Assembly (NCBI GenBank): GCA_965116795.1
Contig: OZ220716.1
Location: 1,770,503-1,834,502, forward strand
From: Gammaproteobacteria bacterium
GTDB taxonomy: Bacteria > Pseudomonadota > Gammaproteobacteria > JAJFKG01
Length of the DNA: 64,000 nucleotides
Reading direction: 5' to 3'
The notes beneath the pieces are model-generated. The model made no database searches. It worked only from the letters and a program-made list of their open reading frames with translations, and was not told where the DNA came from. Both the position numbers and the translations under genes were made by a program. Below, in pieces: positions 24,074-24,171 of the stretch (position 1 is its first letter; each line of letters begins with the position of its first letter).

Positions 24074-24096
24074 CGTTGATGTTGATCGTTTCGGTA

Positions 24097-24134
24097 TGTT
24101 GGAGATCCGCCCAACACCACTGTCGCCATCATTT
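24097..24134 (-). repeat. ~40-bp copy of the RT gene 3' region just downstream of paralog 1
   Basis: TGTTGGAGATCCGCCCAACACCACTGTCGCCATCATTT vs TATTGGAGACCCGCTCGACACCACTGTCGCCATCGTTT at 33471-33508; 33 of 38 identical by hand. Confidence 0.9.
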
Positions 24135-24171
24135 AAATTAGAGGAGTTTACAAAACAGGGAACAGAAGCAG

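Follow-up and report, generated by a model that had tools for sequence, protein, structure and literature searches.

The window, that is, the whole stretch of 64,000 nucleotides of a gammaproteobacterial contig (OZ220716.1) analysed here, contains two long paralogous genes on the forward strand, which are followed by a convergent reverse transcriptase (RT) gene. Gene 1 (14003..24073) encodes a large ankyrin/LRR-type protein of 3356 aa, a putative secreted effector as judged solely by its size and domains, and gene 2 (24172..33135) a paralog of 2987 aa that is 76-85% identical to it at the amino acid level before the tail. The two genes can be aligned up to positions 23458 and 32649, respectively, and not past them; the boundary is abrupt, passing from 17% divergence to unalignable sequence, and neither a gradient nor an asymmetry was seen in the last 100 alignable codons. 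The tail of gene 1 (23459..24073, forward strand) is G-rich and T-poor at third positions (z ~3.6), and that of gene 2 (32650..33438, forward strand) has the same skew (z 3.5-4.1); the stop of gene 2 at 33135 lies inside its variable tail, which continues beyond this internal stop, where the same frame is closed again at 33438, and overlaps the end of the RT frame. The RT gene (33326..34432, reverse strand) is an intact frame of 368 aa with RVT_1 as its only domain, a YMDD motif at 33776-33787 and a core that extends to residue ~320; the residues past ~325 (an extra ~45 aa) are a low-confidence run-on into the gene 2 tail. Its neighbours in the window are gene 2 and an EamA transporter.

Several other features lie around these genes. 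A palindromic insertion (13702-13988), bounded by perfect terminal inverted repeats of 21 nt and containing a further inverted repeat of 45 nt, is located 14 nt before the start of gene 1, and a related repeat is found at 10668-10772. The first 450 codons of the two paralogs (14003-15300 and 24172-25500) are 96-98% identical, as compared with 81-93% deeper in, which suggests a recent gene conversion at the 5' ends. Further downstream, an AbiEi/AbiEii toxin-antitoxin pair (36291-39286) is flanked by direct repeats of 100 nt, which overlap a tRNA gene, and forms a small integrated element, and two palindromic 181-nt repeats (49789-49969 and 55109-55289) are inverted relative to each other.

The length of the RT core (~320 aa) and its intact catalytic aspartates fit the short RT-only format of the UG4 group, whose members are described as RT-only proteins of 278-347 aa (PMC2602772, as excerpted). 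An example UG4 protein from the same source matches the family motif by motif when compared by eye, and relatives associated with fimbrial operons and plasmids are 31-33% identical to the window RT and carry the same RNA element described below in a weaker form. The window RT is likely a UG4 member, an assignment that draws on protein length, on the fimbrial and plasmid surroundings of relatives and on motif comparison by eye. Its score against the group II intron-type model TIGR04416 is 119 (cut-off 300). An assignment to G2L5 was considered and dropped, as G2L5 is described with a DN active site and a long N-terminal extension. The genome contains two other, distant RT-like matches (25-27% identity). 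Searches of genomes from the same genus and the same family did not recover the RT, the C-terminal part of gene 1 as query had no match in four genomes, a metagenome scan with a single RT protein as query gave no matches, and no family RT was matched in 50,697 phage records; a single viral contig (L210) carries a family RT.

The first-pass annotation had singled out a 38-nt repeat shared by the RT gene and the region behind gene 1, and had read it as a cis-acting signal for RT recognition, priming or homing. The match itself was reproduced: positions 24097-24134 and 33471-33508 are identical at 33 of 38 positions, the five differences (G/A, T/C, C/T, A/G, A/G) are all transitions, and the pair scores a blastn E of ~4e-7 against the 2.45 Mb genome, in which an exhaustive scan found no third copy (runner-up 25/38). 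The parent copy (33471..33508, reverse strand) lies within the RT frame and codes for the last predicted thumb helix (residues 301-318, W-x-x-W-x-x-x-G). The orphan copy (24097..24134, reverse strand), which starts 24 nt past the stop of gene 1, corresponds to RT codons K309-Y321 and is non-coding; the translations given earlier for both copies are correct, and at least two of the five differences cost the orphan residues that the RT family conserves, one turning Arg into a stop and one turning Gly into Asp. The motif ATCGTTT, which is left over from the spacer that separated the target stop from the RT end, does precede both copies (24085..24091, forward strand, and 33455-33461), but at unequal distances of 5 nt on the orphan side and 9 nt on the RT side. 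The distances of 24 and 33 nt to the preceding TAAs (24073 and 33438) are correct, although the open frame of gene 2 has already closed at 33135.

The 38-mer is indeed better conserved than the adjacent tails, but 33 of 38 is not clearly above the neutral divergence of the paralogs. Between genes 1 and 2, identity at four-fold sites is 0.80 (826 sites), which gives P=0.20 for at least 33 matches; for the last 155 such sites before the tails the identity is 0.72 and P=0.026. That all five differences should be transitions has a probability of ~0.08, and with drift confined to the orphan and the RT copy fixed by protein constraint, 31-33 matches are expected. The minus-strand hairpin proposed for both copies can be drawn, but it is missing from the minimum-energy fold of the orphan, has z-scores of ~0 and is not conserved in the family; no covariation was detected across 82 family sequences, in which 44.6% of cells are paired as compared with 42.3% after shuffling (57/500). 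A cis-acting role of the 38-mer is not borne out, as it has neither conservation clearly above neutral nor a covarying structure. The orphan is probably an inert relic of a tandem duplication that broke off at the base of a three-way junction in the RT gene; a leftover of a duplicated RT at a breakpoint, which the first-pass annotation had named as its own refuting case, fits the orphan data best. The upstream sequence of gene 1 that the palindromic insertion interrupts resembles, by eye, the 37 nt before gene 2, and this similarity would be consistent with a tandem duplication that has its join at the orphan.

The nucleotide-level element of the RT family is, to judge by its pairing pattern, this three-way junction, which is located immediately upstream of the 38-mer segment and is conserved as a structure. 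It comprises 67 nt within the RT coding end (33505..33571, reverse strand) and folds on the RT-sense strand: the outer stem is formed by 33556-33571 pairing with 33505-33520 and encloses a short hairpin (33544-33554) and a second hairpin (33521-33541), all on the reverse strand. Of this junction the orphan, which starts at the outer-stem base, contains just 4 nt (E=0.64 against the junction covariance model). Among 133 open-frame RTs (32 disjoint pairs), synonymous divergence drops to 0.09 and 0.12 at the junction codons, -30 to -11 relative to the last Trp, as compared with 0.17-0.31 across the remaining coding bins; the last ten codons reach 0.20 and those directly after 0.33, and the 38-mer codons are ordinary in this respect (0.20 and 0.33). 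A Leu codon is fixed as CTT in 125 and a Glu codon as GAG in 124 of the 133. When 82 indel-free sequences out of 103 dereplicated ones were tested (insertion-bearing sequences and one frameshifted row being excluded), 78.7% of cells were paired, versus 69.0% after shuffling (0/500) and 31-45% when the structure was slid along the alignment, and both sides had changed in 20 of 26 pairs. A U-G pair is kept in 82/82 sequences, and because of its invariance the fold is assigned to the RT-sense strand. Five sequences swap a U-A for a G-C pair despite two amino acid changes, and in the Legionella-type RTs (L082, L088, L091, L106, L110) the conserved Leu and Glu codons change jointly while the short hairpin still pairs. 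RNAalifold recovers the two inner hairpins unaided; the outer stem was drawn by hand and is paired in 67% of cells. The covariance model matches once in the genome, at the RT, and Rfam contains neither a family that matches the junction nor an intron that matches the window; promoter and terminator scans remained at chance level. What stands of the earlier general idea is that the 3' coding end of the RT doubles as a nucleic-acid element and that RT-less copies lie behind paralogous targets which seem to diversify still, but the 38-mer itself is not that element.

The family was surveyed in 80 genome and 80 metagenome loci plus plasmid loci, ~170 relatives overall. The closest downstream ORF is convergent with the RT in 73 of 96 scored loci and a further 18 have no ORF, with the proviso that ORF calls in GC-rich DNA may partly be spurious. 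Among 29 pairs of loci with RTs at least 94.5% identical, seven (four independent sets) display a peak and return of divergence, eight are identical or nearly so, six are too short and eight never realign. In the peak-and-return loci, divergence reaches 30-60% just past the junction and near identity is regained 0.5-4 kb out. For L044/L064, whose RTs are 100% identical, divergence per 100 nt beyond runs 2, 41, 49, 20, 24, 5, 0, 0%, and for L059/L073 it runs 2, 30, 35, 21, 13 and so on down to 3 and 1%; L047 and L135 differ by five SNPs, every one within +160 to +334. Duplicated loci show similar patterns on a smaller scale: the L097 duplicate, on one contig, is near-identical save for a scrambled patch of ~130 nt, identity in the L089 duplicate ends at the Trp motif, and the L080 duplicate has clustered changes with indels. 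The adhesin (invasin) alleles of Salmonella plasmids exhibit gradients of 1-4 kb, which at times extend into the 3' half of the junction, and at an E. coli locus the co-directional adhesin past the RT is ~50% diverged, whereas the one lying upstream still shows 93% identity.

Adhesin tips vary through recombination in any case, and these patterns might arise without any mutagenesis by the RT: allele swapping and diversifying selection would account for the variation of the tails, the RT would mark the edge of a mobile cassette, the junction would serve RNA stability, defence or mobility, and the orphan would be a relic. The eight pairs that never realign would agree with such a scenario, as would the abrupt boundary in the window and the divergent tails that RT-less paralogs in this genome also carry. 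Simon and Zimmerly (2008; PMC2602772, as excerpted) likewise read two UG4 copies with unlike 3' flanks as possible mobility. On the other hand, several sets return to near-zero divergence further out, which rules out insertion at new sites for those sets, and indel-bearing patches occur inside otherwise near-identical repeats. A strand-specific skew at silent sites recurs, moreover, in unrelated target genes of many phyla and is absent from the RT-less paralogs. On balance we regard an RT without mutagenic function as rather unlikely.

This skew is most evident in low-GC hosts, where in the last 600 nt of the neighbour T is lower at four-fold sites in 24 of 27 loci and G higher in 25 of 27, these loci being relatives rather than independent samples. 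In the window genome, the third-position G minus T step of the two tails takes ranks 2 and 3 among 457 long ORFs, behind a single other gene, and the skew is absent from two RT-less ankyrin-plus-tail paralogs. The top-ranked gene was considered as a third target and rejected, since it is a Ser/Pro repeat without an RT remnant and the junction model matches the genome only once. Five distant paralogs of 2200-3000 aa (G000:C1:1250008-1364600 and 2058172-2065344) are G-rich at third positions over at least the last 700 codons; they too were rejected as targets, being G-rich over much of their length and lacking a common motif. Past the junction in the relatives, mismatches comprise all six types, with indels and a purine skew, and polarised rates are 0.21 for A, 0.19 for C, 0.14 for G and 0.20 for T (181 changes in three trios, background change included). 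At convergent loci the composition of the RT strand drifts away from A. At loci with a co-directional neighbour, purines are likewise enriched on the sense strand of that neighbour: seven of eight such loci have A>T on the RT strand, and the four-fold sites in L092, L033, L034 and L078 are skewed in a similar way. No inverted RT-end copies were seen behind co-directional genes.

A skew that follows the sense strand of the target in both orientations would be accounted for if the target mRNA were the template. The RT would then be anchored on its own RNA by the junction, and the 3' stretch containing the 38-mer would pair with the 3' end of the target mRNA and prime error-prone copying, such that one RT serves both genes. 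The orphan does start at the junction base, its pairing to the RT RNA would keep 33 matches plus 2 G-U pairs out of 38, and the skew of gene 1 is as strong as that of gene 2; junction-less RT-end fragments like the window orphan are also present in L115, with a skewed stretch behind, and in L080. However, the 38-mer codons have no excess synonymous conservation and their identity is that of neutral drift, the equivalent segment has decayed in the orphan of L184, where the junction is retained (84%), and mutation at times enters the 38-mer segment and the 3' half of the junction. Co-directional loci have no complementary overlap, and the skew would, furthermore, long outlast the end of mutagenesis. 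Priming on the mRNA is an unlikely option, and the remaining interest of the 38-mer is as a clue to the system and as the minimal construct that separates the two priming models.

The sense-strand skew and the change of all four bases could also reflect DNA synthesis. G2L4, a group II-like RT, is said to have a purine preference. It repairs DNA breaks in an error-prone manner (10.1101/2022.03.14.484287, as excerpted), and the window RT, tethered by the junction RNA, might similarly work as a DNA polymerase of low fidelity and fill gaps in the displaced sense strand of the neighbour during transcription, the orphan again being a relic. Gap filling leaves unexplained why change halts at the junction and spares the silent sites of the RT upstream, and we consider it improbable.

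Some loci hint at RT action beyond the immediate neighbour. A second match to the junction model occurs in 9 of 99 related loci (one is a second long RT copy and one is weak). Three Salmonella plasmids contain a second adhesin with an RT cut at the identical position and the junction kept in all; their tails differ by 40-55% over 1.0-1.3 kb, while the bodies are mostly 90-100% alike and the remnants close, and one plasmid has private dense changes at +1100 to +1400, where three other alleles agree. These truncated RTs with divergent tails suggest action of an RT in trans, although conversion between paralogs or with an unsampled allele could mimic the signal. The ends of nine fragments relative to the last Trp are -18, -34, -55, -97, -106, -204, -226, -458 and -471, of which 3/9 fall within the junction; post hoc, these three would fit duplications seeded by cDNA ends. 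Further arrangements were noted in passing. In L184 (1150-8300), one RT is accompanied by three surface proteins, which we take to be of the PEP-sorting-signal type, each followed by a convergent RT 3' remnant. In L115 (1100-6100), a family RT that carries a PF13471-type domain at its N-terminus (as in P0004) lies between two asparagine-synthetase-like genes, and behind each RT end and each remnant come ~400 nt that are poor in A, contain no long ORF and may represent a variable peptide precursor. Short RT-end copies 135-170 nt beyond the RT end (L080:11012-11049 and L118:1962-2075) are possibly template-jump products.

Taken together, the groundwork consists of a junction that, as far as comparison of relatives can tell, is conserved on the RT-sense strand, a divergence gradient past it and no separate template repeat. 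Probably, the family acts as a mutator in one mechanistic variant or another. For the window RT itself, we see an evenly balanced case for a UG4-family hypermutator that is self-templated and acts on the DNA past its own 3' end, with the 38-mer orphan as an inert leftover of duplication. Such an enzyme could act in the following manner: The RT transcript would continue beyond its stop into the antisense strand of the neighbour, and the RT would bind the junction within this run-on RNA. Copying of the downstream RNA would then introduce indels as well as errors at all four bases, and would halt at or in the junction. The cDNA patch may subsequently recombine into the same locus; as the target would be its own template, changes would accumulate, and they would be densest near the RT. 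Any locus that keeps the junction may be served in trans. Gene 2 would be the present target, and the skew of gene 1 would date from the time when gene 1, or a common ancestor, had the junction; since the junction is now absent, gene 1 is likely a former target that is frozen. Against self-templating, a fixed RT-sense template does not predict a skew that follows the neighbour's sense strand at co-directional loci, the window boundary is abrupt and gradient-free with divergent tails on RT-less paralogs too, the peak and return is found in just 7/29 near-identical pairs, adhesin tips recombine anyway, and paralog conversion could imitate the trans signal. Direct evidence of ongoing variation was sought in contigs from four sequencing runs (one study), which contained no tail variants where the tails were covered; contigs drop rare variants, so matching contigs do not show that variants are absent. 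Two low-share runs contributed short pieces only, which were uninformative for the tails.

For UG4 at large, we lean slightly towards the view that these RTs are widespread template-free diversity generators, in which the 67-nt structure would direct cumulative all-base rewriting of the gene alongside on the kilobase scale, in trans wherever it is kept, and perhaps of gene 1 via the 38-mer. The group has been listed since 2008 without a function. Excerpts of PMC2602772, PMC9226505 (Mestre et al. 2022) and PMC8934634 (Sharifi and Ye) give no function, RNA element or mutagenesis for it, and a search of the full-text literature, with subscription papers outside its scope, found no paper on UG4 mutagenesis or a junction element; PMC8632793, PMC4244168 and 10.64898/2026.09.22.753630, as excerpted, likewise contribute nothing on the subject. 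The present family resembles UG4 in its RT-only core of ~320 aa, the presence of relatives on plasmids (23 plasmid records here; 22 for UG4 in a published survey, as excerpted) and in fimbrial operons, and its near-identical copies with unlike 3' flanks. It differs in that most relatives lie tail to tail with a gene rather than in a fimbrial operon, and it extends to cyanobacteria, planctomycetes and others.

Group II intron RTs are the nearest solved sequences to the window RT (E 4e-32, as compared with 3e-18 for the DGR-type RT of entry 8ub7, presumably the BPP-1 enzyme). Unlike in group II introns, however, no intron RNA match is present in the window, and the structured element is the 67 nt within the RT frame. 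Diversity-generating retroelements (DGRs), with Bordetella BPP-1 as the prototype, are alike in having an RT beside a variable protein end and a coding 3' end (that of the neighbouring avd in the DGR) that serves as an RNA element. There is no invariant template repeat here, neither tail having a blast partner (the best A- or T-tolerant match is 76% and involves other positions); all four bases change, with indels, instead of adenine-specific changes; the variable zone is graded over 0.3-4 kb and not a short fixed repeat; and no member of the Avd family was found among the 13 ORFs scanned in the window. The window system thus falls outside the DGRs by template repeat, adenine specificity and Avd, yet likely works like one. 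If so, one small gene and a 67-nt tag would constitute a second RT-driven route of protein diversification beside DGRs, a mutator without template repeat or adenine restriction and thereby a new bacterial way to vary surface and secreted proteins, which would account for the variable tips of adhesins and secreted proteins in many phyla. The junction element, its strand and its boundary are now defined. In DGRs, an RNA element formed partly by the coding 3' end of avd, the 'cPRT Stop', allows cDNA synthesis and also terminates it (10.1101/2023.10.23.563531, as excerpted); by analogy, we propose that the junction may likewise serve as the binding site of the RT and as its stop.
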